64,000 nt of DNA from positions 212 through 64,211 of the forward strand of contig JBHLKA010000001.1 in the NCBI GenBank assembly GCA_048887145.1. The letters are read 5' to 3'. Source of the DNA: Candidatus Hodarchaeota archaeon. Its GTDB lineage: Archaea; Asgardarchaeota; Lokiarchaeia; Sigyniarchaeales; SOKP01. Positions 12,304-42,073 of this stretch are shown in pieces (positions within the stretch are counted from its first letter, which is position 1; each line of letters begins with the position of its first letter). The notes under the pieces are model-generated. The model ran no database searches, was not told the origin of the DNA, and saw only the letters and a list, made by a program, of their open reading frames with translations. The position numbers and the translations under genes are program-made.

Positions 12304-12927
12304 ATGAAACCATGGCTATTTGATATTTTAGCATGCCCTATAGATAAACACTTCCCTTTAGAATTATTTATTTTTTCATTTGGGACAAGCGAAGATGAAT
12401 TTCAATTATTTGTAAATAATTATAAGAAAAGAGATTTAGAAATTGTTAAAAAAGAAAATATTATTGAAATATATCGAGAAAATGATAATTTATTTGTCAA
12501 AGATAATATTATCATCGAACAAACTCCCATTCAAAAATACCTTGAGTTAATAAGTTTAAGTATTAACGAATTAGATTTTATACATGATAAATCATCAAAT
12601 AAAGCTAGCAAAATATGTTTCAATATAATTAAAAATGAAATTAAAAAGAAAATTATAAACTATTCTAAAAATATAAAGCTTGACAAGATTGAAACATTAT
12701 TACCGGAATTTATTTTTATAAATAAAATTAAACTCGAAACTGAGATTGAATCAGGTCTTTTATTTTGTCCAAGATGTAAACGCTGGTTCCCCATAAGAGA
12801 CAGCATTCCACAAATGCTTCCAGATGAATACAGAAATGAAAACGAAGAAATTGACTTTTTAAAACTTAATAGTAAATTATTAGGAGAAAAATTTTTTAAA
12901 CACGATTTAAAACCATTTAATATTTAA
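12304..12927 (+). CDS. Trm112-like zinc-ribbon protein with a large internal insertion
   Basis: The N-terminal half-motif LFDILACPIDKH and the C-terminal half LLFCPRCKRWFPIRDSIPQMLPDE form the Trm112 signature. They are separated by about 130 aa. Confidence 0.55.
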   Translation: MKPWLFDILACPIDKHFPLELFIFSFGTSEDEFQLFVNNYKKRDLEIVKKENIIEIYRENDNLFVKDNIIIEQTPIQKYLELISLSINELDFIHDKSSNKASKICFNIIKNEIKKKIINYSKNIKLDKIETLLPEFIFINKIKLETEIESGLLFCPRCKRWFPIRDSIPQMLPDEYRNENEEIDFLKLNSKLLGEKFFKHDLKPFNI

Positions 12928-14206: not shown

Positions 14207-15406
14207 TTATTCAACTTGCGAATCCAAATATGATATGGTTTCATAACAAATCCCTAAACATCCATTCAAAATTTTATTTGAACATTTATCTGGAGTATCT
14301 TTTATAGAATGAATATATTTTGAATCTCGATCTGAATGGAAACAGGCTATCTGAAAAAAACTTTTAAGTTTCTTTCCAAAACGTCGAAATGAAGTATAAT
14401 CACCAGCTGGTCCACGCACTTTATCAAATAAATCTAAAGGAATATTTAATCTCTGTGCGGATTGTTGAATTATTTCGTTTAAATTCTTATTAAGTGCTTT
14501 TTTTCTTATTAATCCCTTTTTATTAAATAGTCCTATATATGTACCTACCATATCTATATTAATATTCATAGATTTGTTGAGATCGTATTTATTTTTGAGA
14601 TAATATTTATTTTTTTTTATATAGTTCTTTGAACCCTTCAACCCCCATTCCTCTGCTCCACACCAGATGAATATAACATCATGGTTTTCAAGTGGTTTGC
14701 TTTTTATTAATTTAGCTAATTCAATTAAAATAGAAACCCCACTTGCGTTATCTATAGAACCAGTTGATTTATTTGCAATAAAGAAGAATAAAAAAAGCGG
14801 AATTACTACACTTAAAGAAATTATTGAAACTATACTTACTAAATAAACAAAAATTACATCATACGCGGTAATTTCAAACAAATTTAGTGCTATCCAAATC
14901 GTCACGAATATTGTTAGACCAATATATGGCAAGATTATAATCCTTATTATGAATAATAATATATTTTGAACTTTATACGAGATCCTTGAAGACACAGAAT
15001 CATAATGAGCAGAAAAAATAATAACTGGCCTATTTTTTACCCGTCTTCTAGCTTTTATGGTGGCAATTAGGTTTTTAGATTGTTCTTTTTGTGTAAATGA
15101 AATCTTTCTAGTTTTTTGAAACATGTATTTAATAAAGAAAAAGAGTACAATTACTAAGAATAGCTTAAAAGCAACTAAATAAGCTAATATCATTAAATAA
15201 ATAGTTTTCATTAGATATCTTATTGGACTGCTCCATGCAAAATATTCCAATTTGAAATTAATATTATTATCAAAAAGTTCTTCTTGCATATAATTAACTG
15301 CTTTTGTTTCTCCCACCGTAGCTGCCGCACGATCAAATGCTAAGAAATACACATGTTTAATGGTATCTAACTCATCAATTAGTTTTTGTTCTAACATCAC
15401 ACCCAT
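14207..15406 (-). CDS. M28-family metallopeptidase, membrane-embedded
   Basis: Matches FSAHYDSV, IDNASGVSILIELAKLI and IWCGAEEWGLKGSKNY (M28 zinc ligand motifs). Several TM segments are inserted. Confidence 0.7.
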   Translation of the reverse strand: MGVMLEQKLIDELDTIKHVYFLAFDRAAATVGETKAVNYMQEELFDNNINFKLEYFAWSSPIRYLMKTIYLMILAYLVAFKLFLVIVLFFFIKYMFQKTRKISFTQKEQSKNLIATIKARRRVKNRPVIIFSAHYDSVSSRISYKVQNILLFIIRIIILPYIGLTIFVTIWIALNLFEITAYDVIFVYLVSIVSIISLSVVIPLFLFFFIANKSTGSIDNASGVSILIELAKLIKSKPLENHDVIFIWCGAEEWGLKGSKNYIKKNKYYLKNKYDLNKSMNINIDMVGTYIGLFNKKGLIRKKALNKNLNEIIQQSAQRLNIPLDLFDKVRGPAGDYTSFRRFGKKLKSFFQIACFHSDRDSKYIHSIKDTPDKCSNKILNGCLGICYETISYLDSQVE

Positions 15407-15711: not shown

Positions 15712-17523
15712 ATGGAAATGGAAAAGAAAAATGTAGCAATCATTATCCTTGCCATAGCATTAATCGCCTCCGGTGTTGGTAACATTATCCTTGTTCTAGA
15801 GCCGGAATTTGTGCCTCCACCGGGAGTACGGACCCTTTTATTCGGTAATATGTATATAGCAGAAGATATCGACCCTCAATATGCTTGGGATTCTGCTTCT
15901 TTTGATGCGACTATGATGGTATATGAGTGTTTACTTAAGAATAATTTGACTCAAGCTTCCTTAGGACAACCAATGACCTCCTTTCCCTTACTTGCATCTG
16001 ATATGGGTACTTACGATGTAACCGGAACAGAATTAACGTTTAACCTTAGACAGGGGATTACATTCCACGATGGCGCTCAATTTAATGCTTCTGCTGTTAA
16101 ATTCAGTTTTGATAGATTAGCATACTTAATGAATGTTACTGGTCATCCTTGGGGCCCTCTGCCTAATACTAACGTTTATGGAACCATAAGTGTTATCGAC
16201 TCCTTATATAGGTGGGGTGATGGTACACCAATCATTAACCGCACTGAAGTTATCAGTAATTATATTGTAAAGATTATACTAAATAAACCTCATGGTGTAT
16301 TCCGTGCTTTGTTAACATTCCCAGCAGCAGCTATTATGTCACCTGTATCTACACCTCAACTTGATTTCATAGATCCAGCTTTAGCGGGATTAGATCCTTT
16401 AGGAATAATCCCTAATCCTGTTGCTGGAACTGGTCCTATGATATTAGAAAATATAGATACCTACGAAGTAAGATTCTCTGCTTATGAAGATTATTGGCGA
16501 CCCCGAATAGCTATAGATGTCTTAGTACATGTTAAAATTACAGATTCTGATACTAGAAACTTGGCAGTGATGGCTGGTGATGTTGATCTTATACAAGATC
16601 CATTCGATGCTTACCATGCACAAATGAGGACTACTCCAGGTCTTACTCTTTTAGATACTGGAACAACCAGCGCGATCACCTCATATATGGGGATCAATAC
16701 TAGACTTTATAATGTAACCTGGAGAGAGGCGTTTTCATACGCATTCAACTATTCCGCTGTAATTGATGGTATTAAGATGGGTAACGCAGTTAGAATGGTA
16801 TCTCCTGTACCAATAGGAATTAAATGGCATAATGGCACATTTGATTACGCAACTTATGACCTTGCACATGCCAGATCAGTCATGAATAGCATGGGTTTTG
16901 GAGTTGGCTTTACAGATCAAGATTGGATAGACCAGGCGAACGGCCCATCGCCGTTCTTAACTTTGAACTACACGTATAACATTGGTAACCCAATCAGAGA
17001 AGGTATAAGAGATGTAGTGATGGACAATTTCGAAAGAATTGGAGTACTTGTTACGGATGCGGGTGTGACATGGGAGGATTACAAGGATCGATTCTACAAT
17101 AGAAGGACTCCCGGTGTAAGTCACGGCTGGGATTCATTAAATATTTATTGGCTTGGATGGATCCCTGACTATAACGATCCCGAGAACTTCATTAACCCAA
17201 TGTTCAGTAATATTTCATACAGTAACGCTTGTCAAATAAATGATCCTATTTTAGAAACATTAATGGCAGCTGGAATCGAGGAAACCGATGAAGATATGAG
17301 AAGACCTCTTTATATGGCGATGCAAAAACGTCTCGTTGAGGTTCTTATGCCTTTTATGTGGGGCTACCACGAGATTAACTTTGAAGCCTTCAATAGCCAA
17401 CTTAAGGGATGGTGGAGTAACCCAATCTCATATAATGATTTATATGGAGTGTACTGGGAGGGACAACTTAATCCAGGCGAATTTGGATATATGGGAGATG
17501 GACACATACCCTTACCCCCCTAA
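15712..17523 (+). CDS. ABC transporter substrate-binding protein, family 5 (Opp/Dpp/Nik type), membrane-anchored
   Basis: 603 aa with an N-terminal TM anchor (VAIIILAIALIASGVG). SBP_bac_5-like features include LTFNLRQGITFHDGAQFNASAVKFSF and GTGPM. It lies upstream of cognate permeases and ATPases. Confidence 0.85.
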   Translation: MEMEKKNVAIIILAIALIASGVGNIILVLEPEFVPPPGVRTLLFGNMYIAEDIDPQYAWDSASFDATMMVYECLLKNNLTQASLGQPMTSFPLLASDMGTYDVTGTELTFNLRQGITFHDGAQFNASAVKFSFDRLAYLMNVTGHPWGPLPNTNVYGTISVIDSLYRWGDGTPIINRTEVISNYIVKIILNKPHGVFRALLTFPAAAIMSPVSTPQLDFIDPALAGLDPLGIIPNPVAGTGPMILENIDTYEVRFSAYEDYWRPRIAIDVLVHVKITDSDTRNLAVMAGDVDLIQDPFDAYHAQMRTTPGLTLLDTGTTSAITSYMGINTRLYNVTWREAFSYAFNYSAVIDGIKMGNAVRMVSPVPIGIKWHNGTFDYATYDLAHARSVMNSMGFGVGFTDQDWIDQANGPSPFLTLNYTYNIGNPIREGIRDVVMDNFERIGVLVTDAGVTWEDYKDRFYNRRTPGVSHGWDSLNIYWLGWIPDYNDPENFINPMFSNISYSNACQINDPILETLMAAGIEETDEDMRRPLYMAMQKRLVEVLMPFMWGYHEINFEAFNSQLKGWWSNPISYNDLYGVYWEGQLNPGEFGYMGDGHIPLPP

Positions 17524-17567
17524 TGAAGGCGGAGATGCGTTTTAATTAAATAAATAATTAAATTATA

Positions 17568-17580
17568 TTTTTTTTTCTTT
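17568..17580 (+). terminator. Oligo-T tract downstream of the SBP gene (archaeal-type terminator candidate)
   Basis: A T9-C-T3 run sits 45 nt after the stop codon. Archaeal RNAP terminates at oligo-T, but the AT-rich background lowers specificity. Confidence 0.3.
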
Positions 17581-17645
17581 AATTTTTGTCTTATCTTAAA
17601 TTTATACACAAAGATTACAAAAGAGTGAACCAAGTAAATTATTAG

Positions 17646-17663
17646 TGTTCAGATTTCTGAACA
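17646..17663. promoter_or_regulatory. Perfect 8+8 palindrome TGTTCAGA-TT-TCTGAACA (operator or hairpin candidate)
   Basis: Read directly from the sequence. It is about 105 nt upstream of the ORF at 17768 and stands out from the surrounding A/T-only sequence. Confidence 0.3.
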
Positions 17664-17767
17664 GAATAGGTTTAGCATAATTTTAAAAAGTAGGAAATAA
17701 AAGAATTATTTAGAGAAAATATGAAAAAGAAATCTGATTTGGGATTAAATGGCGGAGGTCCATTTTT

Positions 17768-18640
17768 ATGAACCGAAAAACTCTATTTAGAAATCCTCCT
17801 TCCAAATTAAAATCATTTAAAAACGATATTGCTCCGGTTGGATTTTATTTTGATTTATTTACCACTGATCTGTTTAAAATTCCTGTAATGCCAATTCCAA
17901 TGAGAATTGATAAAATATCAAATGGAGAGCCTACTTTATTTATATTTCCAGACTTCATTAAACTAAATAAATTATGTGAAAAATTAGATTTATTTTTAGA
18001 TTTTCAATTGTTTTTCGTTTTAGGGATTAAAAATTTAATAAATTTTACAAAGAACAAATATAAAGAAATAACTTTTCGTCCATTGGATGATAATAAAATT
18101 CGAAAATGGTTTATTAATTCAAAAATAATAAACACAGATATTTCTTTTTTGAATAATGATTTTACGTTTCTAATTTCTGAATTTTTAAAATTGTATTCTA
18201 ATATTAATGCCAATATGGATTTAGAAGAATATCATCCTGACCTAATCAAGTATTGTAACACAATAATTAATTTTTTAAAGGAAAAAATAGAAAATAATAT
18301 ATTGCGCGTTGAAAATGATAATATAATTAAAACAGAAAAATTATATGAGGAAAGAGAAAATAAATATTTTCCTAATATAATAACTATTAAAGTTTATAAT
18401 TCTAACACAAAAAAAATGAAAGAAATGAATTTCATTCCATATTTGATATACGATGATCTGTTTGATTCATTTTGCTATAATAAAAAATTATTGCTTGAAC
18501 ATAATTTTTCACTATTTAATTTACAATCATGGAAAAAAAATAATATAATTAATAACGGATCGAAAACTAACGAAGTTGATTCTGAAAAACTTCTTAAAAA
18601 TATTGATCTAGAAAAATTAGACTTGGGATTGATATTATGA
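17768..18640 (+). CDS. Hypothetical protein (290 aa), extremely AT-rich
   Basis: ORF with an N/K/I/F-rich product and no recognisable motif. It has a 4-nt ATGA overlap with the next ORF. Confidence 0.5.
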   Translation: MNRKTLFRNPPSKLKSFKNDIAPVGFYFDLFTTDLFKIPVMPIPMRIDKISNGEPTLFIFPDFIKLNKLCEKLDLFLDFQLFFVLGIKNLINFTKNKYKEITFRPLDDNKIRKWFINSKIINTDISFLNNDFTFLISEFLKLYSNINANMDLEEYHPDLIKYCNTIINFLKEKIENNILRVENDNIIKTEKLYEERENKYFPNIITIKVYNSNTKKMKEMNFIPYLIYDDLFDSFCYNKKLLLEHNFSLFNLQSWKKNNIINNGSKTNEVDSEKLLKNIDLEKLDLGLIL

Positions 18641-19092
18641 AAAAAAAAATCGAAGTTGGAAGACAATCTAAATATATTTTAGCATGTTTTTTGATTCATT
18701 TCCTATTCTTTGGATATATCTGCAATGTATATGAAAAATCGATTGGAGAGAATATCCTCTTTTTACATAGAGCAATCTTTAATCCTTCTTCATATTTATC
18801 GGCAATTATTTTATTCGCTATCGTTTTTATTACGGTATATAGAGAGAGATTTTTTGAATATGGAATTAGAAATAGTATTTGGTTAATTCTATTTATCATT
18901 TTCGAATCGTGGATATGGTATTGGTTCATTAATGGATTTGATATTCTAATTATTTTTATTTATTTTACAAAATTAGAAACATTACTAACGATACTTTCGC
19001 TATTAGGTATAAATTTGCTATCGGCTTTTCTTGGTGCCAGTTTAAAGCAAAGATATCTAAATTCTCTAAAAAAACTTAAAACAATTTCATAA
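18637..19092 (+). CDS. Hypothetical membrane protein (about 4 TM)
   Basis: 151 aa with hydrophobic segments. It is translationally coupled to the preceding ORF. Confidence 0.5.
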   Translation: MKKKIEVGRQSKYILACFLIHFLFFGYICNVYEKSIGENILFLHRAIFNPSSYLSAIILFAIVFITVYRERFFEYGIRNSIWLILFIIFESWIWYWFINGFDILIIFIYFTKLETLLTILSLLGINLLSAFLGASLKQRYLNSLKKLKTIS

Positions 19093-19151
19093 TCTAAAAA
19101 AAAAATAAAAAAAGGGTTATTAAATAGAAAAATGTGGTGATCTAATAGAAT

Positions 19152-20168
19152 ATGAGTATGATCAAATATATCTTCAAAAGGATGCTAGCAATGATACCTG
19201 TGTTGTTTGGTGGATTATTACTATCATTTTTTCTTTCTAGAGCTATGCCGGGTGATCCTGTTGGAGTATACCTCCCTCCTAGAGCCACTCCTGAACAATA
19301 TTGGGATGCATATTATTCGCACGGATTTCATCTTCCTCTGTGGCAACAATTCTTTATATACCTTGGGGATATCTTTTCAGGAGATTGGGGTTATTCTATA
19401 ACTGTAGCTAGACATGTACCGGTTTGGGATTTAATTTGGCAGAGATTTCCTAGGACATTAGATATAACTATGTTTTCAATGATTATTGCTTCTTTTCTAG
19501 GAATTAAAACCGGTGTAATTTCTGCAAGGCATCGAAATAAGTGGAGGGATACTGTTTTTAGGGGAACAGCTCTTATAGGTGTATCAATCCCTGTTTTTTG
19601 GTTAGGGCTAATATTGCAGTATTTTATCGGTTATCAACTGGGTTGGTTGCCCGTTTATCACTTTAAAGATGCTGGTTTTGTTGACCCTCCTCAAGTTACG
19701 GGTTTTAGAATAATTGATTCGTTGATATCGGGGCAGTGGTATTTAATAGGGGATTATTTAGTCCACTTGGCAATGCCAGTTTTCTGTTTAGCTTTTATTA
19801 TGCTCGCATCGATTACACGACAAACCCGTTCAAGTATGCTTGAAGTTCTTCAACAAGATTATATAAGAACTGCTCGCGCAAAAGGGTGTAGAGAAAAAGA
19901 TGTAATTAAAAAGCATGCCCGTAAGAATGCACTAATTCCCACTGTGACAATTATTGGATTAAACGTTGGAGGGTTATTAGGCGGAGCGTTTTTAACTGAA
20001 ACAACTTTTAATTTATTTGGAGTTGGTAATCTTTTGTTGGAGGCTATTACGGGTCGTGATTATAGTGTTCTGAATGCAATCGTTGTCACGACAACCCTGA
20101 TTTTTATAGTTGTGAATTTATTTGTAGATTTAATCTATGCTTATTTAGATCCTAGAATAAAATATTAA
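19152..20168 (+). CDS. ABC transporter permease (OppB/DppB type)
   Basis: N-terminal YIFKRMLAMIPVLFGGLLLSFFL..MPGDP, the EAA-loop region DYIRTARAKG, and a C-terminal DPRIKY end. Confidence 0.9.
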   Translation: MSMIKYIFKRMLAMIPVLFGGLLLSFFLSRAMPGDPVGVYLPPRATPEQYWDAYYSHGFHLPLWQQFFIYLGDIFSGDWGYSITVARHVPVWDLIWQRFPRTLDITMFSMIIASFLGIKTGVISARHRNKWRDTVFRGTALIGVSIPVFWLGLILQYFIGYQLGWLPVYHFKDAGFVDPPQVTGFRIIDSLISGQWYLIGDYLVHLAMPVFCLAFIMLASITRQTRSSMLEVLQQDYIRTARAKGCREKDVIKKHARKNALIPTVTIIGLNVGGLLGGAFLTETTFNLFGVGNLLLEAITGRDYSVLNAIVVTTTLIFIVVNLFVDLIYAYLDPRIKY

Positions 20169-20185
20169 AAAAGGTGGAAAAGTAA

Positions 20186-21202
20186 ATGAAACAAGAAGTA
20201 AGTCTTCAAGAATTAAAGGGAGAATTAGAAGGTGAAGAAGAGGAGAGTGCTAGTAGGAGTGTTTTTAAATGGTTCTTCAATAATATTAAGTTTCTTCTTA
20301 TTCCTGCTTCCAGATTAGAGGAACTTACAATTCGAGAACGTGAATATGATAAGACTGTGAGTAAAAGAAGTTTTCTTAAAAGATTAAAATCAGTTTTAAC
20401 TATTTTAGGAATCGTTATAGTTTTGTACGTCGTAACCCTAGCCATATTCGGAGCTTGGATTTCTCCATATACTTTTCAAGAAGCTGATGCTGTGTATAAT
20501 GCCCCTTTATTCTGGGCTGAGCCTTCTCCTGCGCATCCTTTAGGAAATACCTATATGGGGCGTGATGTTTATGCAAGAATGATATATGGGGCCAGAGCTT
20601 CATTAACCATGGCTCTACCAGCAATAGGATTAAGCCTTATTTGTGGTATTTTTTTTGGAATATTAGCTGGTTACGTAGGCGGTTGGCTAGATTCTATAAT
20701 TATGAGGGTTTTTGATATTTTGCTTGCATTTCCAGCGTTAATCTTTGCTATAGTTTTTGTTTCAATCTTTGGAAGATCATTGAGTATTATTATTATGGCA
20801 TATGGTGTTCTTGGGATTCCCTATTATTCACGATTAATTAGAGGAAATGTATTACAAGCAAAAGAATTGCCCTATGTACAAGCAGCAAGGGTATCTGGTG
20901 CTAAAACTTGGAGAATAATGTTTAGACACATCTTACCAAACACTATCCAACCAATTATTATATCAGTTACGTTAGATATTGGTGGAGTTATTCTAAGCTT
21001 TGCAGGTCTTGCGTTTTTGGGATACAGTGATCCAGATTTAATAGAATGGGGTAGAGATATCAGTGATGCCCGTGGTCATATTTTAGACGCACCTTGGGCG
21101 TCTCTTTTCCCAGGGTTGATGATCGTCATTACAGTATTGGGATTCATGCTACTTGGTGATGGTTTAAGAGATGCTCTAGATCCGCGATTGAAGAATTTAT
21201 AA
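20186..21202 (+). CDS. ABC transporter permease (OppC/DppC type)
   Basis: Matches HPLGNTYMGRDVYARMIYGAR, PYVQAARVSGAK and LRDALDPRL. Confidence 0.9.
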   Translation: MKQEVSLQELKGELEGEEEESASRSVFKWFFNNIKFLLIPASRLEELTIREREYDKTVSKRSFLKRLKSVLTILGIVIVLYVVTLAIFGAWISPYTFQEADAVYNAPLFWAEPSPAHPLGNTYMGRDVYARMIYGARASLTMALPAIGLSLICGIFFGILAGYVGGWLDSIIMRVFDILLAFPALIFAIVFVSIFGRSLSIIIMAYGVLGIPYYSRLIRGNVLQAKELPYVQAARVSGAKTWRIMFRHILPNTIQPIIISVTLDIGGVILSFAGLAFLGYSDPDLIEWGRDISDARGHILDAPWASLFPGLMIVITVLGFMLLGDGLRDALDPRLKNL

Positions 21203-21247
21203 AATTTCTTTTATTAATAATTTGATTAAGACAGATGATTAAGAAAA

Positions 21248-22495
21248 ATGGAAAAAGTAGAAGAAAGGCAAGAATTTAAAGAAGATATATCATCAATAAA
21301 AAGAGACATTAAGAAATTACTTGAGGTTACAAATTTAAAAACCTACTTTTATACTGAAGAAGGTGTAGTAAAAGCTGTAGATGGTGTTTCTTTTGACATG
21401 TATGAGGATGAAGTCCTTGGGCTTGTTGGTGAAACTGGTTGTGGAAAATCGGTTACGGCACTCTCTATTATCGGCCTTGTAAGGGAACCAGGAAAGATTA
21501 TAGATGGATCTATAAAACTTAAAGGCGAAAACCTACTGGATTTAGAAGAAAGAAGAATGAGGGATCATAGAGGTAAAGATATAACTATGATCTTCCAAGA
21601 TCCTCTAAATTCACTAAATCCAGTTATGACAGCTGGATTTCAAATTGGAGAAGTCTTTTTACTTCATCAAGAAAATGAACTTAGAAGAATGCTAGATGAA
21701 AAAATTCTGGAAAGGAAACAAAAAATTGAAGAAGTTAAAGAACTAAATGCAAAATTAAAGGATACAGAACTATCAATAGAAGAAAAAGAAGATATCAAAA
21801 TTAGAATTGAAGAAACCAAAAAAAAAGTACCAAAAATACCATATCTAAAAGATATCTTAAATGATAAAGTAGAAAAAATCATTAAAGAAGTGGGTATTGC
21901 GGATGCGAAAGGAATATTAAAAAGATATCCCCATGAACTTAGCGGTGGTATGAGACAACGTATTATGATTGCTATGGCGCTCTCTTGCGAACCGTTATTA
22001 TTAATTGCTGATGAACCAACAACTGCTTTAGATGTTACCATTCAAGCTCAAATTTTAGATTTAATGAAGGAATTAAAAGATAAATTTAGAACGTCAATAC
22101 TGATGATTACTCATGACTTAGGAATCATTGCCGATACATGTGATAGAGTGGCAGTGATGTATAGCGGAAATATAGTTGAGTATGCTACAGCAGAACGCTT
22201 ATTTAAAAATCCCCGACACCCATATACACAAGGATTAATCGGAGCAATTCCTAGTATTGAAAAAAAAGACCAAAAGTTAAAGGTTATTCGTGGTATGGTC
22301 CCTAATCTAATATATCCTCCATCAGGTTGTAGATTTCATCCTAGATGTGATCATAGAATGGAAATATGTGATAAAGTAAAACCAAAACTGAATGAAATTG
22401 GAGAAAGATATTTCGTGGCATGTCATCTTTTTGATCCAAAATATAAGGATTCACCTAAATATGATGAGAGTAAAGAAAAGATTGAAATTCCATAA
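21248..22495 (+). CDS. ABC transporter ATP-binding protein (OppD/DppD type) with a coiled-coil insertion
   Basis: Walker A GETGCGKS, Q-loop MIFQDP, signature LSGGMRQR, Walker B LLIADEPTTALD, and a C-terminal oligopeptide-transporter Cys motif (CRFHPRC). Confidence 0.9.
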   Translation: MEKVEERQEFKEDISSIKRDIKKLLEVTNLKTYFYTEEGVVKAVDGVSFDMYEDEVLGLVGETGCGKSVTALSIIGLVREPGKIIDGSIKLKGENLLDLEERRMRDHRGKDITMIFQDPLNSLNPVMTAGFQIGEVFLLHQENELRRMLDEKILERKQKIEEVKELNAKLKDTELSIEEKEDIKIRIEETKKKVPKIPYLKDILNDKVEKIIKEVGIADAKGILKRYPHELSGGMRQRIMIAMALSCEPLLLIADEPTTALDVTIQAQILDLMKELKDKFRTSILMITHDLGIIADTCDRVAVMYSGNIVEYATAERLFKNPRHPYTQGLIGAIPSIEKKDQKLKVIRGMVPNLIYPPSGCRFHPRCDHRMEICDKVKPKLNEIGERYFVACHLFDPKYKDSPKYDESKEKIEIP

Positions 22496-22542
22496 AAAAT
22501 AATTTTAAAATATAAATTAATTATAGGGTTGGAAAAATTAAT

Positions 22543-23679
22543 ATGACTGTAGTTGAGGAGAAAATAGAGGATTCCACAAACGGCAGAAAGGTCATCTTAG
22601 CAGCCAGAAATCTTAAAACTTATTACCCTGTTTATGGTGGGCTTTTTAAAAGAAGAATTGCAGATGTGAAAGCGGTTGATGGAGTCTCATTTAATCTTTA
22701 TGAAGGAGAGACTTTAGGTATAGTTGGAGAAAGTGGATGTGGCAAAACTACAATAGGGAATACCATTTTAAACCTAGTAAAGCCTACAGCCGGTGAGATA
22801 ATTTATCGAGGAAAAAAATTAGTCCTTTCTAAGAAATTACATAAAAAGCAAATTAAAGGAAAACAAACAGATATAAAACAAACTAAAGAAGAAAAAAGAA
22901 GACTTAAGGCTATACCATACTCAACAGAAACTCGTAAGAAAATTCAAATGGTATTCCAAGATCCGGACTCATCTTTGAATCCTCGCTGGAAAATTGTAAA
23001 TATTATTGGTGAACCACTTAGAATATTAGAAGGAATGAAAAAAAGGAGTAGAATTCGCGCAAGAGTTCTTGAATTATTAGAAACAGTTTCAATGAAAGCA
23101 GAACATCTAGATCGATTTCCCCATGAATTTTCAGGAGGTCAAAAACAAAGAATAGTCATTGCTAGAGCTCTTGCCTGTAATCCTGATATAATGATTTTGG
23201 ATGAACCAACCTCTGCCTTAGACGTATCAGTTCAAGCACAAATATTAAACCTTTTAAGAGACCTTCAATCTCAATTCGATTTATCTTATATGTTTATTAC
23301 TCATGATTTAAGTGTAGTGCATCATATAGCTGATAGAATTGCCGTTATGTATTTAGGTAAATTTGTTGAGACAGGTCCTATAGAGAAAGTTTTCTATCAT
23401 CCTCTACATCCATATACCAAAGCTTTATTATCAGCACGCCCAACTTTTGATCCTACTTCAAGAATAACTAGAATAATCTTAAAAGGTGATGTACCAAGTC
23501 CTATTAACCCTCCTGAGGGATGTGCCTTTAATCCTAGATGTTATGAGAAAGGTAAGCATATAGGATGCGGAAAAGAGGATCCTGTAAGAATTGAAATGGG
23601 TAAAGATCATTATATCTGGTGCAGACCTTTTGTAAAAGAAGAAAAATCTTATGAAGGAATGGAATATATATCTGATTAA
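22543..23679 (+). CDS. ABC transporter ATP-binding protein (OppF/DppF type)
   Basis: Walker A GESGCGKT, MVFQDP, FSGGQKQR, MILDEPTSALD, and C-terminal CAFNPRC. Confidence 0.9.
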   Translation: MTVVEEKIEDSTNGRKVILAARNLKTYYPVYGGLFKRRIADVKAVDGVSFNLYEGETLGIVGESGCGKTTIGNTILNLVKPTAGEIIYRGKKLVLSKKLHKKQIKGKQTDIKQTKEEKRRLKAIPYSTETRKKIQMVFQDPDSSLNPRWKIVNIIGEPLRILEGMKKRSRIRARVLELLETVSMKAEHLDRFPHEFSGGQKQRIVIARALACNPDIMILDEPTSALDVSVQAQILNLLRDLQSQFDLSYMFITHDLSVVHHIADRIAVMYLGKFVETGPIEKVFYHPLHPYTKALLSARPTFDPTSRITRIILKGDVPSPINPPEGCAFNPRCYEKGKHIGCGKEDPVRIEMGKDHYIWCRPFVKEEKSYEGMEYISD

Positions 23680-34778: not shown

Positions 34779-35291
34779 TTAAACATTAAACAACCTTTCG
34801 CCAAGCTTTATCGTTATTATTGCTTGTAGTGCGACAAAAGCTGAAATTATAAAAATCATTCCAATTACCAAAATCTTTACAGCTGTTTTTTTATTATATA
34901 CGTATTTGGATGCTTGATAGACTAATAAAAATCCTATAGAACAAAGAAAAATGAAAATTGAAGCTACTATACTCTCAATTATAAAAGCTTCGTTAAGATC
35001 AGGATATAATAGAACAGCGTTACCTTGTTGATCTGCTCCTATTGCTACAGGTTCTCTGTAAATAATATATACTATTCCCATCTGAAGTAAGAATAGGATA
35101 ATATAAATTCCTATAACTACTAAAGATTTACCTGGTAAAGGCATATCCATTTTAGGTAGTTTTATCTGCGGATAGGCTATTTTAGGTTTCCTTAATGAAT
35201 TTCCAAATATCCAAGGAGTCTTACTCTTTATTTTTTCAAAAATTGTTTCTGAACCACTGATTTCTTCTTTTGTAGTTTTTCGTTTTTGCAT
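34779..35291 (-). CDS. OSTC(DC2)/Ost3-Ost6-family-like three-TM membrane protein
   Basis: 170 aa. IKLPKMDMP...GIVYIIYREPVAIG...AFIIESIVASIFIFLCSIGFLLV parallels remembered human OSTC (LKLKKPPW...GGIIYDVIVEPPSVG...[23 protein letters not shown]) with the same TM topology. Confidence 0.4.
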   Translation of the reverse strand: MQKRKTTKEEISGSETIFEKIKSKTPWIFGNSLRKPKIAYPQIKLPKMDMPLPGKSLVVIGIYIILFLLQMGIVYIIYREPVAIGADQQGNAVLLYPDLNEAFIIESIVASIFIFLCSIGFLLVYQASKYVYNKKTAVKILVIGMIFIISAFVALQAIITIKLGERLFNV

Positions 35292-35375: not shown

Positions 35376-36887
35376 CTATACTAATTTCTTTAATAATGCT
35401 ATCAAGAAATTCCAAATTCTTTCTACACTCTTTATTTTTAAGCGTTCATCTGGTGAATGAACATCAGTTATATCTGGTCCGATCGAAATTATCTCCATAT
35501 TTGGATAATGATAAACAAAATAGGCACATTCTAAACCTGCATGAATAGCCTGAATTATAACTTCATTATCGAATAGTTCTTTATATATTTTTCTAGAAAG
35601 TTTTGAAATTTTTGAACTGAAATTTGGAGGCCAACTTGGATATTCATATTTGATATTTACATTTAAATCCAAACCAGATATTTCAAACAAAGTTAAAAAT
35701 CTTTCATATAATATATCCTGTTCATATTGAGTTAAACTCCTTTGGCTTATAACAAAATTTATAGAATTTTTTTCAGTTCTTATTGAAGAAAGGTTAGTAG
35801 AGGTGTGTACCAATTCTTTAGTTATAGGATGTATCGAAATGGGGCCGTTTGGCATTGAAAATAATAAGTCTATTAATCTGTTCTGTAATTCTCTAGAAAT
35901 CATTAAGTAATCATTGAAATCTTCTAATTTTTGAATTAAAATTTCCATATTCGATTCAATTCCATTATATAACATCTTAATATGCAGAGAATTGTTATTA
36001 ATAAAATTAGTTATCTTAGAAAGGTCATTCTCTTCAATAAAAAATATAGCTTCCGCTTCTCTTGGAATAGCATTATCCAAATTACCCCCATTTAAGGAAT
36101 TTAAATAAATATTATATTTCTTTTTTAATTTCCATAAAATTTGTGAAATTATTTTTAGTGCATTCGCTCTACCTTTATTAATATCTCCCCCAGAGTGCCC
36201 ACCAACCAGTCTTATAACTGAAAGCTTCATTGGGATCACTTCTTTTTCCTTATCTACAGATTTTCTTCCGTCTTTTACAATAACTTCAAAAATTCTTCCT
36301 CCTGCTGCACCAATAGTAAATCTATTTTCTTCTTCTGAATCAAGATTTATCATGTAGGAGCCACTAATCATATTTTTATCAATTTGACTTGCACCAATTA
36401 GCCCTCTCTCCTCATCTACAGTAAAAAGAAGATCTATTGAAATAGGACCTAGGTCTAACTCTCCTTTGTAGATTTTTTTCATTAAAGCTAATTGATAAGC
36501 CATTCCAACAGCATTATCCGCTCCTAAAGTAGTACCGTTTGCGGTTATCCACTTTTCATTATTAATTTTAATTAATTTTATATCTAGCGGGTCTTTTGAA
36601 AAGTCGTGCTTAACATCATCATTCTTTTCGCAAACCATATCCATGTGGCTCTGTAAAATAACTCTGGACTTTTCACTTTTTAATTTTGAAGGAATTTTAA
36701 TTACTATGTTTTTAATTTGATCTATCATGGTTTGGAAACCCATTTTTTCTGCCTCTTTTTGAATAAAAACTCTCATTTGATCTTCGTACCCAGAGCATCG
36801 AGGAATTTTTGATATTTCATAAAAGTATTCCCAAAATTCTAAAGGTTTACCCAATTCTTTTAAGTCTTCCATCATAATCGCTTTCAA
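35376..36887 (-). CDS. pepD: Xaa-His dipeptidase PepD (M20C family)
   Basis: Matches LQSHMDMVCEKN, TLGADNAVGMA, DEERGLIGA, GGHSG, and C-terminal VHSPDERL. Confidence 0.85.
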   Translation of the reverse strand: MKAIMMEDLKELGKPLEFWEYFYEISKIPRCSGYEDQMRVFIQKEAEKMGFQTMIDQIKNIVIKIPSKLKSEKSRVILQSHMDMVCEKNDDVKHDFSKDPLDIKLIKINNEKWITANGTTLGADNAVGMAYQLALMKKIYKGELDLGPISIDLLFTVDEERGLIGASQIDKNMISGSYMINLDSEEENRFTIGAAGGRIFEVIVKDGRKSVDKEKEVIPMKLSVIRLVGGHSGGDINKGRANALKIISQILWKLKKKYNIYLNSLNGGNLDNAIPREAEAIFFIEENDLSKITNFINNNSLHIKMLYNGIESNMEILIQKLEDFNDYLMISRELQNRLIDLLFSMPNGPISIHPITKELVHTSTNLSSIRTEKNSINFVISQRSLTQYEQDILYERFLTLFEISGLDLNVNIKYEYPSWPPNFSSKISKLSRKIYKELFDNEVIIQAIHAGLECAYFVYHYPNMEIISIGPDITDVHSPDERLKIKSVERIWNFLIALLKKLV

Positions 36888-36970: not shown

Positions 36971-38077
36971 ATGAGTAGCTGGAAAGATTTATATTCTGAA
37001 GTTAAACAACGTAAAATGGAAGCCCTCAATAAAAAGGATGTTGTTAAAGCAGTTGAAGAACATGGTAAAATCTTGGCTGTTGAAGGAAGATATGAGAAAC
37101 CTAAAAAAATTATTGAACATATGTATGCCGCAGCTCATGAAACAATAAAGCCAAAACAAATAATGAAATATAACCTTAAAGATTATGATGTTGTGTTGAT
37201 TGGATGCCCGGGTGATGGAGTGCCACATTCAGCTTATCCAAAAATTAAAGAATATGTATCAACACATGGAGGTTGGTTAATTACAACAGATTGGGCAATT
37301 AAAACTTTGGTTGAAGTAATTTTTCCGGGGTATATACGCTGGAATGGAAAAAAGACTGCTGATGCAGTTGTTGCTTGTCAAATAATGGAACCAAATCACC
37401 CCTTTTTGGATGGTGTCTTAACTGAAATCCAACAGAGTAAATGGCAAAAAGGTGCCTCAAAAAATACTAAAAAAACAGAATTTCGATGGTGGTTGGAGAC
37501 TAAAAGTTTTCCCATTACTATATTGAATCCAACTGTTCATATTTTAATATCATCGCAAGATATTCTTCGAAAGTGGGGAGAATCTCCTGTATTTTTATAT
37601 TTTGATTATGGTAAAGCTGGTGGTAGGGTAATTCATATGATCTCCCATACTCATTTACAAAAAGGAGGTCCTAAAGGAAAATACGCATCAGCACTTATAT
37701 TAACTAACATTTTAGATGAAAAAGTCTCTCAAAAGACAGGTATTTCAAAATCACCTGCGACAGGATATATTTCTAATTGGGAACAAGCCCAACAACCTCA
37801 ACAGCAATATATAACACCTAATCAACAAAAAAACTTTTTAACTCCTTCGGATGCAGTTATTGGATTAACCGGAACTGCACAAATCGTAGAAATTAATGAA
37901 AATAGCAACGAATTTTCATTTGCTAGTAAATGTGGTTATTGTGGATATGATTTTGGTGAATATACTGGCAAAATTTATATGTGCAATGCCTGTAAAACAC
38001 CATATCATGAAACCTGTCTAAATATGCAGATAAATGAGGGTAACTGCAAGAATTGTGACAAAATCTTGTTATGGTAG
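36971..38077 (+). CDS. Two-domain protein: GATase1-like/DUF4159-like N-domain, Q/P-rich linker, C-terminal C4HC3 cross-brace zinc finger
   Basis: The N-domain has VVLIGCPGDG.....YPKIKEYVSTHGGWLITTDWA. The C-terminus reads C-x2-C-x13-C-x2-C-x4-H-x2-C-x9-C-x2-C (CGYCGYDFGEYTGKIYMCNACKTPYHETCLNMQINEGNCKNC). Confidence 0.5.
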   Translation: MSSWKDLYSEVKQRKMEALNKKDVVKAVEEHGKILAVEGRYEKPKKIIEHMYAAAHETIKPKQIMKYNLKDYDVVLIGCPGDGVPHSAYPKIKEYVSTHGGWLITTDWAIKTLVEVIFPGYIRWNGKKTADAVVACQIMEPNHPFLDGVLTEIQQSKWQKGASKNTKKTEFRWWLETKSFPITILNPTVHILISSQDILRKWGESPVFLYFDYGKAGGRVIHMISHTHLQKGGPKGKYASALILTNILDEKVSQKTGISKSPATGYISNWEQAQQPQQQYITPNQQKNFLTPSDAVIGLTGTAQIVEINENSNEFSFASKCGYCGYDFGEYTGKIYMCNACKTPYHETCLNMQINEGNCKNCDKILLW

Positions 38078-38178: not shown

Positions 38179-39459
38179 ATGAATTTCCAAAAAGTTTTTG
38201 AAGAAGTAGATAATTTGGATGAAGAAAAAATTATGGAAATTATGAGAATCCTCATTAAAATAGACACATCAGTTCCCCCTGGTAACACTTACCGTGAATA
38301 TGTAAACGCGGTCGCCTCCTACTTTAAAGATTTAGATTTTTTATTAGAAGAGCTCATTATCCCAGAAAGATTAATTCGAGAAATCCCATACCCATTGGAA
38401 GGACCTCGTATTAATCTTATCGCAACAAAAGATTACAATCAAGAAAATTGGATTAGTTTTTATGGCCATATGGATGTAGTACCAGCAACAACAAAAGGAA
38501 AAAGTAAATGGCGATTTCCACCCTTTGAAGCAAAATTAGTTAAAAGTGGAAAGATTTATGGAAGAGGGACAGCTGATATGAAAGGTGATATGGTGTGTCT
38601 AATATTAGCACTTCAAATTATTGATAAATTGAATCTTATACCAAAATTTAATATTCAAGTTTTAAATTGTACAGATGAGGAAGTGGGGGTGTATCCTGGA
38701 ATTCGTTATCTAACAGAACAGGGATACTTAAAAGGAACTACATTTTGTATGGATGGTGTTATTACTCCATTACTTTCTATAGGAACTGCTGGTGACTTAA
38801 ATATAATTGTTGAGATTATAGGAAAAAGTTGTCATTCAGGCTATAATTTTTTAGGTGTAAATGCTATAGAAGAAACTGTTCCGATTTTAAATGAATTAAT
38901 GCTACTTAAAAGTAAGGTTGAAGATCGTAGAAGTAGAGATATTCCTGGAGACCCCCGAGACAAACTTGGTGAAAACTTAAGACCCATGTTTAGCCTTGTT
39001 ATTATTGAGTCCGGAGAAAAAGAAAATATAATTCCTGGATATTGTAAATTAATTGTAAATAGAAGAATTATACCAGATGAGAAATATGAAGATGTAAAAC
39101 AAGAAATCTTGGAAGCTATTAATAGAGGAAAACAGAAAAGTAAGGCATTAGATGTTAAATTAACTTTTAGATATGATAATCCGCCTTTAAAAGTAAATCA
39201 TAACTTATCTATCATAAAACGTTGGAAAAAAACCATGGCAATAGTTAACGATATTCCAGAGGATAGAATCCAGATGATTGGAACTTCAGCTTCTACCGAT
39301 ATGGGATTCGTAGCTGAAATCCTTAATAAGGAAGATATTATTATAGCAGGTATCGAATCTCCAACATCTAAAGCTCATGGAGAAAATGAATTTACTAGAC
39401 TGAGAGATATTAAAATATTTATAAAAGAAATATTAGTTTTTCTGTGTGGCGATTTATAG
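38179..39459 (+). CDS. M20-family metallohydrolase (ArgE/DapE/CPG2-like)
   Basis: Matches FYGHMDVVPA, GRGTADMKG, CTDEEVG and KAHGENEF. Confidence 0.85.
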   Translation: MNFQKVFEEVDNLDEEKIMEIMRILIKIDTSVPPGNTYREYVNAVASYFKDLDFLLEELIIPERLIREIPYPLEGPRINLIATKDYNQENWISFYGHMDVVPATTKGKSKWRFPPFEAKLVKSGKIYGRGTADMKGDMVCLILALQIIDKLNLIPKFNIQVLNCTDEEVGVYPGIRYLTEQGYLKGTTFCMDGVITPLLSIGTAGDLNIIVEIIGKSCHSGYNFLGVNAIEETVPILNELMLLKSKVEDRRSRDIPGDPRDKLGENLRPMFSLVIIESGEKENIIPGYCKLIVNRRIIPDEKYEDVKQEILEAINRGKQKSKALDVKLTFRYDNPPLKVNHNLSIIKRWKKTMAIVNDIPEDRIQMIGTSASTDMGFVAEILNKEDIIIAGIESPTSKAHGENEFTRLRDIKIFIKEILVFLCGDL

Positions 39460-39586: not shown

Positions 39587-39943
39587 ATGAAAAAAAAAGT
39601 CTGTCAAGTCATAGAAGATTATCATTCCCCTTATCCAGATCCTTTTATAGTAAATAAGGGTGAAATATTAAGAATTGAAAATAAAGAATGTGAATGGCCC
39701 GGCTGGATATGGTCTGTTAAAAATGATGGCGAAGGAAGGTGGGTTCCAATGGATCATATAGAACTTCAAGAAACTCAAGCAAAATTTATCAAAGATTATA
39801 ATTCAATAGAATTAACAGTATCTACTGGACAAATCCTAACTATTGAAAAAGAGTCATACGGCTGGATTTGGGTAATTGATGAAAATAATAAATATGGATG
39901 GATACCATTAAAGAATGTGAAAATTTTAGAAGATAAAAAATAA
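39587..39943 (+). CDS. Tandem SH3-like domain protein
   Basis: There are two internal repeats: KGEILRIENKECEWPGWIWSVKNDGEGRWVPMDHIEL and TGQILTIEKESYGWIWVIDENNKYGWIPLKNVKIL. Both fit the SH3 pattern GD.l.v....dgWW.g....G..G.fP..YV. Confidence 0.5.
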   Translation: MKKKVCQVIEDYHSPYPDPFIVNKGEILRIENKECEWPGWIWSVKNDGEGRWVPMDHIELQETQAKFIKDYNSIELTVSTGQILTIEKESYGWIWVIDENNKYGWIPLKNVKILEDKK

Positions 39944-40960: not shown

Positions 40961-42073
40961 TTGAATATTGAAAAAATTTGGGATTTTAACACAAATGAAC
41001 AGTTACTAGGTGTAGAATTAGGAACTTTAATCAAAGGTAATAATAAACAAATTATAACATATACTAAATCTGGAAAGATCCTAATTTTCTCATTAAACGG
41101 GAAATTATTGTTTAAAGATGAAATAACGCAGGAAACACCAATTTGGAAAGCATTAATCTATGATATTGATAATGATGGTAAAGAAGAGTTACTTCTGGGT
41201 GGAATGGATGGAATTTTAAGAGTCTTAAAATATAAAGCTGAATTTAAGTTAAAACTCTATTGGACACATAGATTTAATTTCTCTATTGGGGGAATTTTAG
41301 TAGATGATATTAATAATGACGGAATTAATGAAATTATCACCTTTTCTCTTGATAAAAGTCTACGCGTTCTAAACCCATTAGATGGATCTTTAATATGGGG
41401 ACAAATTTTTGAAGAAGGTATTGGGGATGCATTAATATGGAGAAACTTTAAAGATCCTAATGAGATTGAAATTATTGCATGTAGTAATGATGGGACAATA
41501 AGAATTTTTGATAATAAATATGGAGAATTACTCTGGTTTAAACGATTTTCTAATAAAGTTAGATGTCTTTCTTATATGCGTTCATATCAACACGATTACA
41601 TCGTATGTGGAGGAGATGATAAAAAATTACATATTATCGATAAAGAGAGAAAAGAAGAAATTAAAACTTTCGAGACAGATGAGATTATATGGAAATGCCT
41701 TTCATTTCCTCCACAAAGACACAATAATTTATTAGCAAGTTCCTATTCTTTTAAATTTTTAGATAAATCAATTCCAATTAAAGATATTAAATTAAAATCC
41801 AAAGTACTTTGCTTCAATGAAAATTTTGATGTAAAATGGGATTACAAAAATGTAAATACTGAAATTCTTAGCTATATTAATACTTCTGAAAACAAATGCA
41901 TTGTAATTGGAACAACACGAGGATATTTAATGTTAATAGATGAAATGAATGGCAAAGTACTAGCTCAAATTAATAATCCTTCTTGTTTAAATGGTTTTTA
42001 TTTTGATAATGATTCAAGGATTTTAATAACTTGTCATGATAATGGATATATCTATGGTTTTATTCTTGATTAA
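40961..42073 (+). CDS. Beta-propeller repeat protein (FG-GAP/VCBS- or PQQ-like blades)
   Basis: Six to seven repeats of the type DIDNDGKEELLLGGMDGILRVL, DDINNDGINEIITFSLDKSLRVL, ACSNDGTIRIFD and CGGDDKKLHIID. TTG start per the ORF track. Confidence 0.55.
   Translation: MNIEKIWDFNTNEQLLGVELGTLIKGNNKQIITYTKSGKILIFSLNGKLLFKDEITQETPIWKALIYDIDNDGKEELLLGGMDGILRVLKYKAEFKLKLYWTHRFNFSIGGILVDDINNDGINEIITFSLDKSLRVLNPLDGSLIWGQIFEEGIGDALIWRNFKDPNEIEIIACSNDGTIRIFDNKYGELLWFKRFSNKVRCLSYMRSYQHDYIVCGGDDKKLHIIDKERKEEIKTFETDEIIWKCLSFPPQRHNNLLASSYSFKFLDKSIPIKDIKLKSKVLCFNENFDVKWDYKNVNTEILSYINTSENKCIVIGTTRGYLMLIDEMNGKVLAQINNPSCLNGFYFDNDSRILITCHDNGYIYGFILD

Follow-up and report, generated by a model that had tools for sequence, protein, structure and literature searches.

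The last 72 residues of a 368-residue protein encoded by a Candidatus Hodarchaeota archaeon (a Lokiarchaeial genome; contig JBHLKA010000001.1 of assembly GCA_048887145.1) are best read as a two-zinc cross-brace finger of RING lineage, which uses a variant C4HC3 ligand set and has drifted towards a PHD- and C1-like sequence. The gene lies in a 64,000-nucleotide stretch (positions 212 to 64,211 of the contig, forward strand; here called the window) with a G+C content of 29%. The protein's family is RING-type and linked to the ubiquitin system, because homologues of the window protein are found in archaeal ubiquitin operons and operons of that kind have been reconstituted with a RING E3. The finger of the window protein, called the Loki finger here together with its orthologues, is viewed with somewhat more confidence than doubt as a RING-derived docking module that still acts in a ubiquitin-like pathway.

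RING E3 ligases and PHD readers are hallmark modules of eukaryotes, and their prokaryotic roots are thinly documented. The finger described here stands on the boundary between RING, PHD and C1 domains, and is connected with complete archaeal ubiquitin operons through its remote homologues. It is joined through a disordered linker to an N-terminal domain with a class-I glutamine amidotransferase-like (GATase1-like) fold.

The C-terminal finger and its predicted fold

The initial annotation had placed a C4HC3 finger at 37931-38074, and both its ligand order and its spacing are exact in the sequence. The last 48 residues read CGYC-GYDFGEYTGKIYM-CNAC-KTPY-H-ET-C-LNMQINEGN-CKNC-DKILLW and are followed by the stop codon. 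The spacing is C321-x2-C324-x13-C338-x2-C341-x4-H346-x2-C349-x9-C359-x2-C362-x6-COOH, and seven of the nine Cys residues of the protein fall within this segment. A relaxed C4HC3 regular expression gave a single match in the window (274 stop-free segments in six frames) and none in 500 residue shuffles; the pattern is far beyond chance.

The gene is highly conserved and of an Asgard, Lokiarchaeia-type distribution. Homologues form 233 clusters in a large protein collection, and the best 120 are full-length with 64-85% overall identity to the window protein. The named members among these 120 are all Asgard (Promethearchaeota and Lokiarchaeota, with some bins labelled Hermod-, Hod-, Thor- or Odinarchaeota). 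A relative is encoded by at least 138 GTDB species-representative genomes, the best 80 of which are all Promethearchaeota. All eight ligands and the identical spacing are found in 119 of the 120 orthologue clusters, the sole exception (P0108) carrying a C359F substitution.

The conserved unit is larger than the 48-residue finger first annotated. It starts at about residue 297 and comprises about 72 residues, with a leading β-strand (LTGTxQIVE), an FSF motif, the two-zinc finger and a C-terminal strand. F315-S316, ahead of the first Cys, is invariant among the orthologues, the ILLW end is present in 120/120 and R/K364 in 118/119. A number of other non-ligand positions are near-invariant: Y323, D327, F328, E330, G333, K334, Y345, E347, N351, Q353, N355, E356, G357 and K360, in addition to R/K364. 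Such conservation suggests that the module presents a specific binding surface and is not a zinc knot of purely structural role. Strong purifying selection acts on the ligands, on many residues of the surface and on the ILLW tail. Mean identity of the orthologues to the window protein is 74% in the N-terminal domain (1-256), 43% in the linker (257-296) and 69% in the module (297-368).

The Q/P-rich low-complexity linker of the initial annotation is borne out. It contains 8 Q and 4 P, its predicted local distance difference test score (pLDDT) is <50 over residues 262-299, and its length varies from 31 to 50 residues among the orthologues. The linkers of the Asgard members P0126, P0293 and P0294 are enlarged by tandem repeats of ~20 residues (…EIRLE[SA]PK[AS]APQY[ST]S…).

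The structure of the module was predicted alone with AlphaFold2 (AF2) from 35 orthologues, with a pLDDT of 86.7 and a predicted template modelling score of 0.73. The model has strands at 7-13, 40-43, 49-51 and 70-72 and a helix at 52-61 (module numbering). The C321/C324 knuckle is followed by a hairpin, the first strand of which ends at C338, with C341 in the turn and the second strand ending at H346. The helix starts at H346/C349 and leads to the final C359-x2-C362 knuckle. In the model this order of elements is that of a binuclear treble clef. A cross-brace pairing would place C321, C324, H346 and C349 in site 1 and C338, C341, C359 and C362 in site 2.

Foldseek comparison of the model with the PDB gave no statistically strong match, as expected at ~70 residues. 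The top match is the RNF38 RING (1x4j; E 0.056, probability 0.97, TMq 0.57, 67 columns), followed by C1 domains, RING1B, Pirh2, the TFIIH p44 RING and PHD fingers. Tallied by match names, RING, C1, PHD or MYND domains account for about 40 or more of the first 50 matches. The superpositions with the lowest root-mean-square deviation (rmsd) are with C1 domains, in the range of 1.8-2.5 Å over ~50 residues (PKC-theta, 1.8 Å over 48 columns; Munc13, 2.3 Å). The two-zinc cross-brace topology first proposed is consistent with this predicted fold, which falls in the RING/C1/PHD class. Sequential zinc ribbons and non-conserved ligands, the findings named beforehand as arguing against it, were seen neither in the predicted fold nor in the orthologues.

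The spacing had initially been called near-canonical for PHD and RING-CH fingers, which holds for ligands 1-6 of a PHD finger. In the ligand order and in this part of the spacing the finger is PHD-like (119/120 orthologues). It shares with the PHD fingers of PHF21A/BHC80, MTF2 and CHD4 the C4HC3 set, the C-x2-C-x13-C-x2-C-x4-H-x2-C spacing and an I-Y-x-C-x2-C-x3-Y-H-x2-C-[IL] motif. The loop between ligands 6 and 7 of PHD fingers usually has at least 12 residues, with a Trp conserved two residues before ligand 7. The window finger, in contrast, has 9 residues in this loop, ~5 fewer than the aligned PHF21A PHD (two insertions in the hidden Markov model alignment). The loop is without Trp, the invariant Gly357 standing at the position of the PHF21A Trp.

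The RING-CH part of the claim did not hold. RING-CH (RINGv) fingers have the spacing C-x2-C-x(10-45)-C-x1-C-x7-H-x2-C-x(11-25)-C-x2-C, whereas x2, x4 and x9 are seen here instead, and the RINGv Pfam model had no match in the window protein at E up to 10; this identity was rejected. A C1 identity was also rejected. The C1 consensus spacing from the first Cys to ligand 6 equals that of the window finger, but the orthologues have V/I and D/N at residues 308/309 and no His 12-13 residues ahead of the first Cys. In addition, unlike in C1 domains, the C-terminal C-x2-C provides both remaining site 2 ligands, and the C1_1 model (PF00130) reached 22.0 bits at best, below its gathering score of 26.5. 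A FYVE identity was ruled out on spacing, motifs or scores. With eukaryotic RING-H2 E3s (RNF38, RNF4, RNF165/Arkadia, RLIM, HRD1) the finger has in common that a helix comes past ligand 6, that the last loop is short (9-11 residues) and that only a short tail separates the finger from the C-terminus. The RING-H2 proteins differ in having C-x-H-x2-H where the window finger has Cys as ligand 4 and the x2/x4 spacings.

RING homologues in archaeal ubiquitin operons

Remote homologues with the same architecture were found by exhaustive full-length profile search; with the 73-residue module as the sole query, two fragments only were returned. At 50% identity, 772 clusters share the N-terminal domain, and by our own tally ~13 of the best 150 representatives also carry the C-terminal finger. 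The Loki profile matches P0131 with E 1.3e-66 and P0205 with E 4e-27, and these proteins consist of the GATase1-like domain, a linker and a C-terminal finger. The alignment of the remote fingers with the Loki finger extends over the leading strand and the hydrophobic tail; in the remote homologues this tail reads ALLIE, VLLY or PIRI.

Several of the remote fingers score as RING. Taken in isolation, the P0131 finger reaches 34.4 bits with zf-RING_2 (PF13639, gathering score 27.3), the P0205 finger 29.5 bits with zf-RING_2 and 30.4 bits with zf-rbx1, and the P0136 finger 28.2 bits with zf-RING_2. The P0133 finger gives 23.7 bits with zf-RING_2 and 21.4 with PHD, the Loki consensus finger gives 23.9 bits with PHD, and the finger of P0124, a deeper Asgard member, gives 30.0 bits with PHD over the whole model. 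Thus the same scaffold grades from RING-H2-like fingers of ubiquitin operons, above the zf-RING_2 threshold, to PHD-passing Asgard versions. Alignment of the Loki fingers with strictly operon-type fingers by hhalign gave a probability of 95.7% (E 8.8e-9), which became 99.2% when two intermediates were added. The family-wide profile, compared with the PDB, matched RNF4, RNF38, RNF165, RLIM, Arkadia, listerin, HRD1 and AMFR at 5e-6 to 1e-4, with RNF4 and RNF38 at ~5e-6, the best C1 domain at 1e-3 and the best PHD finger at 4-5e-3. By these profile comparisons, the Loki finger is homologous to the RING fingers of ubiquitin-operon proteins.

The ligand set varies in the wider family. In P0122 (L087 8001-9206) and in the Theionarchaea-type fingers (P0205/P0303-P0307) the second Cys is missing and C-x3/4-D replaces C-x2-C, and in P0136 an Asp replaces the His ligand. 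Site 1 may be Asp-ligated or zinc-free in some members.

The link to ubiquitin-like systems, raised in the initial annotation on the ground that Asgard archaea encode them, proved to be its most informative part. In the loci of P0305, from a contig labelled Theionarchaea, and of P0205 (L083, the Theionarchaea-labelled one, and L086) the co-directional genes for ubiquitin, a UQ_con E2 and a ThiF E1 are followed by two JAB genes and the homologue, with a UEV/RWD-like gene on the other strand between ThiF and the JABs. The genes past the homologue encode a KAP NTPase, a VWA protein and another RING protein. L090 and L091 have JAB, JAB, the homologue and further RING proteins, and P0303 shows the JAB-JAB-protein-RING layout. 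On two independent contigs (L084, L085) the P0131 gene overlaps the end of the JAB gene in a cluster consisting of an E2-Prok-RING_1 fusion, ubiquitin, ThiF, UQ_con and JAB. When the neighbours were re-checked by Pfam, ubiquitin, UQ_con, ThiF and JAB were above their gathering scores.

The continuation of the Theionarchaea-type cluster (L083 9115-13044; L086 10140-14396; L090 4415-9830) encodes the KAP-family NTPase, which has a Rad60-SLD/Ubl-like match in L090, the VWA protein and one or two RING_2-like proteins. This ubiquitin island is much richer than the minimal Caldiarchaeum operon. The apparent E2-RING fusion that heads the P0131 operon consists of UQ_con and a C-terminal Prok-RING_1-like finger scoring 27.2 bits (gathering score 29.1).

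Ubiquitin systems are found in Asgard archaea in general (PMC5654768). The Caldiarchaeum ubiquitin operon was reconstituted biochemically with a small RING protein, srfp, as the E3 (PMC5654768), and an E1/E2/RING E3 cascade was reconstituted from a Helarchaeial Asgard genome (bioRxiv 10.1101/2023.07.25.550441). Like srfp and the Asgard RING E3 of the ESCRT-ubiquitin cluster, the window family has an archaeal cross-brace finger, and the window protein's remote homologues fill the E3-like slot of their operons. Unlike srfp, which is a small stand-alone RING-H2 protein, the family adds a 250-residue GATase1-like domain and has a C4HC3 finger with C-x2-C-x4-H. The window gene, in addition, lies outside any ubiquitin operon, and its finger is without an equivalent of srfp W58 and without an in-register R69. 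A diverged RING is preferred to a chromatin-reading PHD because the relatives in other archaea sit inside ubiquitin operons.

Contact surface and alternative readings

Mutagenesis showed that I30, W58 and R69 of srfp matter for E2/Ub engagement (PMC5654768). The operon-type homologues retain Tyr/Trp at the fourth position past ligand 6 (srfp W58) and Arg/Lys directly past ligand 8 (srfp R69). The Pro past ligand 7 is retained in the Theionarchaea-type fingers (CPICK/R), and P0131 reads CFTCR. In the Loki finger, Y323 at the srfp I30 position is compatible with this surface.

A number of observations, however, weigh against a RING-derived module that still serves a ubiquitin-like pathway. First, the other contact positions are altered. 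Q353 (118/119) replaces the Trp at ligand 6 +4, G/N/S/D363 lies directly past ligand 8 with the basic R/K shifted to 364, and the invariant K360 (119/119) replaces the Pro past ligand 7. Second, the best Pfam match of the window finger is PHD (PF00628, gathering score 24), with 26.5 bits for the isolated 48 residues, 23.4 for 108 residues and 21.0 for the whole protein, and no RING model is reached. zf-RING_2 has no match in the window protein at E up to 10, and Prok-RING_1 (PF14446) gives 20.7-22.5 bits, below its gathering score of 29.1, with an alignment that spans the whole finger (model 7-44 of 54). Third, a Loki-only profile compared with the PDB finds the PHF21A PHD best (E 0.009), then C1 domains, with the RLIM RING at 0.13. 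Fourth, ligands 3-5 are C-x2-C-x4-H and not the RING C-x-H-x2-[CH], and over ligands 3-6 the C-x2-C-x4-H-x2-C of the window finger departs from the RING-H2 pattern C-x-H-x2-[CH]-x2-C; the C-x2-C-x4-H spacing is found throughout the family, also in members that pass zf-RING_2. Fifth, the zinc-ligand pairing rests on the secondary structure and fold matches of a predicted model rather than on coordinates, and the AF2 alignment is shallow (effective number of sequences, 1.9).

The gene neighbourhood weighs on the same side. Ubiquitin-system genes are not adjacent to the finger gene in the window or in 82 orthologous loci, and the open reading frames (ORFs) of the window that were scanned (roughly 1-26 kb and 33-44 kb) contained no gene for ubiquitin, E1 or E2. 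The neighbours in the 82 loci are instead a divergently transcribed upstream M20 dipeptidase-like gene (80/82), OST3/6 (80/82), GcvH (78/82) and MptE (73/82).

Judged from the alignment, the Loki finger has given up the canonical E2 surface and gained another that is under equal constraint, which would fit either a co-evolved partner (a divergent E2 or ubiquitin-like protein) or a new docking role. Lokiarchaeia encode ubiquitin systems. In the favoured reading, the proteins of this family would act as E3-like adaptors of RING type, with the finger docking E2~Ub or a related component of the ubiquitin system. The substrate would be the task of the GATase1-like domain, which is carried on the flexible linker and would recognise it or catalyse a step on it. 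The Lokiarchaeial orthogroup would have left the operon, and the canonical E2-contact residues would have been replaced by the equally invariant new surface. The Loki finger is probably still a specific protein-docking module in the same pathway; its canonical E3 activity is uncertain.

Unlikely, though it has to be taken seriously, is a RING-derived finger that has lost the ligase function and serves the GATase1-like domain as a zinc-stabilised docking, oligomerisation or membrane-targeting module, much like an atypical C1 domain. The altered E2/Ub-contact positions (Q353, K360 and the shifted basic residue) agree with such a loss, but the replaced surface residues are almost invariant, which suggests a specific partner rather than decay. 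The C1 domains are the lowest-rmsd matches and share the spacing of ligands 1-6, yet the C1 His before the first Cys is missing and the C1_1 score stays below threshold. The ILLW tail is hydrophobic and invariant, but it is predicted to be a β-strand of the module and not a free anchor. The 82 loci without a ubiquitin-system neighbour also favour this alternative. So does the persistence of the gene near OST3/6, ribophorin I and GT4 in divergent Asgard lineages, although conserved block synteny alone can explain it.

It is considered improbable that the family records a RING-to-PHD transition within archaea, or that it includes a working Lokiarchaeial E3 or reader. If true, a working E3 with a PHD-like finger, or an E3-derived tail reader, would point to an archaeal, ubiquitin-system origin of the PHD finger, which has been described as a eukaryotic innovation (bioRxiv 10.1101/2021.11.30.470311). 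A conserved new E3/reader architecture, the GATase1-like fold with a finger, would also join the Asgard repertoire.

Quite improbable, in turn, is a true PHD-type reader of unmodified or modified Lys-rich tails, such as those of Lokiarchaeial histones, which would bring the GATase1-like domain to chromatin. Lokiarchaeota do have histones with K-rich tails as well as SET and MOZ_SAS enzymes (bioRxiv 10.1101/2021.11.30.470311), and loop 1 carries an invariant acidic/aromatic patch (D327, F328, E330). However, no chromatin gene was found in the neighbourhood of the finger gene, in the window scan or in the 82 loci, and the context of the family is ubiquitin-related. The isolated finger exceeds the PHD gathering score, P0124 does so over the whole model, and PHF21A is the top PDB match of the Loki-only profile. 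The PHD match of the window finger, in contrast, spans model positions 1-34 of 47 only, leaving the C-terminal third of the model unmatched, and is below threshold in the full protein. The shorter last loop, with Gly357 in place of Trp, and the RING scores of the homologous fingers in ubiquitin operons also speak against a PHD reader. Several orthologues are named 'PHD finger domain-containing protein' by NCBI and one 'C1 domain-containing protein'; such a PHD label should not be taken to mean that the protein reads chromatin in Lokiarchaeia.

A pair of zinc ribbons or knuckles in sequence, resembling RING and PHD fingers only superficially, is scarcely credible: the ligand pairing is not taken from model coordinates, DZR, Zn_ribbon_3 and ADK_lid give weak Pfam matches at E >1 and HVO_2753 is the single zinc-ribbon-like entry among the top 50 Foldseek matches (probability 0.20), but the order of secondary structures is that of a treble clef, most of those 50 matches are cross-brace domains, the ligands are in register with RING and PHD ligands, and the finger is homologous to Pfam-positive RING fingers.

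The domain class as such is already known, as the NCBI labels of some orthologues show. A literature search found no description of the family or of a GATase-like plus RING architecture, absence there not being proof of absence. Undescribed in the literature searched are the GATase1-like plus C4HC3-RING architecture, its presence in archaeal ubiquitin operons and the RING-to-PHD-like gradient within one family. The analysis yields a candidate E3 or adaptor from the archaea most closely related to eukaryotes and a natural series for the re-purposing of a RING surface. It also yields a previously unmodelled GATase1-like family (the 772 clusters), which recurs with FHA, HEAT, SH3, PBZ, kinase and RING domains.

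The N-terminal domain and the gene neighbourhood

Table 1. Features of the finger gene, of its surroundings in the window and of a related operon. Positions are those of the window unless a locus is named.
Feature	Position	Strand	Basis
Complete gene, 368-residue protein and TAG stop	36971..38077	+	ORF list
N-terminal domain, residues 1-256, class-I glutamine amidotransferase-like (flavodoxin-like) fold	36971..37738	+	Foldseek
Q/P/N-rich disordered linker, residues 257-296	37739..37858	+	pLDDT, orthologue comparison
C-terminal module, residues 297-368	37859..38074	+	AF2 model, conservation
Finger core, C321-C362	37931..38056	+	Sequence; ligands kept in 119/120 orthologues
C-terminal tail, [GNSD]-[RK]-I-L-L-W-COOH, predicted β-strand	38057..38074	+	Orthologue alignment, module model
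T-rich stretch, 24 nt past the stop codon	38101..38110	+	Sequence reading
Genes for OST components, GT4 and Trm112	7115-8479, 10395-12269, 12304-12927, 34779-35291
Peptide-catabolism genes	35376-36887 (-), 38179-39459 (+), 14207-15406 (-), 2640-3620 (+), 15712-23679 (+)
E2-Prok-RING_1 fusion	L084 1525-2580 (+); L085 759-1814

The initial annotation had compared the N-terminal domain with GATase1-like and DUF4159 proteins. The GATase1 fold is supported by the predicted structure, and DUF4159 is not: it has no match at E up to 10 in the window protein and none among 104 diverse family members. The full-length AF2 model has a pLDDT of 73, with the N-terminal domain mostly at 80-95. Foldseek matched residues ~30-256 to the PabA-type domain of ADC synthase (8hx7_B, E 3.4e-6), and the other matches include the GH42 β-galactosidase middle domain, SpuA, homoserine O-succinyltransferase and GMP synthetase. 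There are 17 matches at E <=1e-3, nearly all of them GATase1-fold proteins. The domain thus shares its fold with the class-I GATase-like superfamily (PabA/TrpG-type, GH42 middle domain, ThuA-like) but, unlike these, is matched by no family model in Pfam or NCBIfam. Sequence matches are weak: P0131 gives 22.5 bits with Glyco_hydro_42M, and the family profile finds GH42 3tts and ThuA-like 4e5v. PH1505 (2cyj; phmmer E 0.014) was dropped as an identity for the domain, being unsupported by the fold search.

The domain contains the motifs GCPG (37202-37213), TTDW (37283-37294), HPF, WWLE and ISHTH (37640-37654). Near-invariant across the family are the Cys of xCPG, TDW, W..E and two His, which suggest an active or metal-binding site. 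From the strand-elbow-helix pattern, the GCPG loop (78-81, Cys79) would correspond to the oxyanion-loop motif of triad amidotransferases, the nucleophile-Cys elbow past strand 102-105 would be occupied by T-T-D107-W, and the His-x-Glu position by S-H226-T-H228 of ISHTH. The 'TTDW' domain is fused to FHA (14/104), HEAT, SH3, PBZ (zf-CCHH), Ser/Thr kinase, GGACT and RING domains (members P0121-P0270). Annotated PBZ fusions come from bdelloid rotifers (Rotaria), and this suggests a transfer of the domain into eukaryotes.

The arrangement of the Loki locus suggests conserved block synteny and not an operon. Beyond the neighbours already given, a ferredoxin is found in 71 of the 82 loci and a second, downstream M20 peptidase in 36. 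A functional link of the finger gene to the flanking M20 peptidases was considered and rejected. The M20 adjacency is treated as block synteny because the unrelated OST3/6, GcvH and MptE are likewise conserved at the locus, the downstream M20 is present in fewer than half of the loci (36/82), and the pairing is lost in the divergent Asgard loci L087 and L089. Genes for peptide catabolism are otherwise concentrated in the window: the two M20 genes that flank the finger gene, an M28, an M24 and a complete Opp/Dpp-type oligopeptide ATP-binding cassette transporter (SBP_bac_5, two permeases and two ATPases).

The window also encodes Asgard counterparts of N-glycosylation (oligosaccharyltransferase, OST) components, namely a GT4 (ALG7/AglH-like) glycosyltransferase, ribophorin I and OST3/6, together with Trm112. 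Despite rearrangements, no more than a few kb separate the finger gene from OST3/6, ribophorin I, GT4, Trm112 and a β-propeller gene in L087 (P0122) and L089 (P0287). The persistent OST linkage may be block synteny only. The β-propeller of the window (40961-42073, + strand, 370 residues) is present in 48/82 loci and has weak Pfam matches to the BBSome subunits BBS7, BBS2, BBS1 and PTHB1 and to WD40/FG-GAP families; its orthologue in L088 also matches, weakly, the N-terminal propeller of EMC1. A 118-residue protein encoded at 39587-39943 (+) carries two eukaryote-type variant SH3 (SH3_2) repeats and is present in 9/82 loci. The T-rich stretch that follows the finger gene is possibly an archaeal oligo-T terminator.

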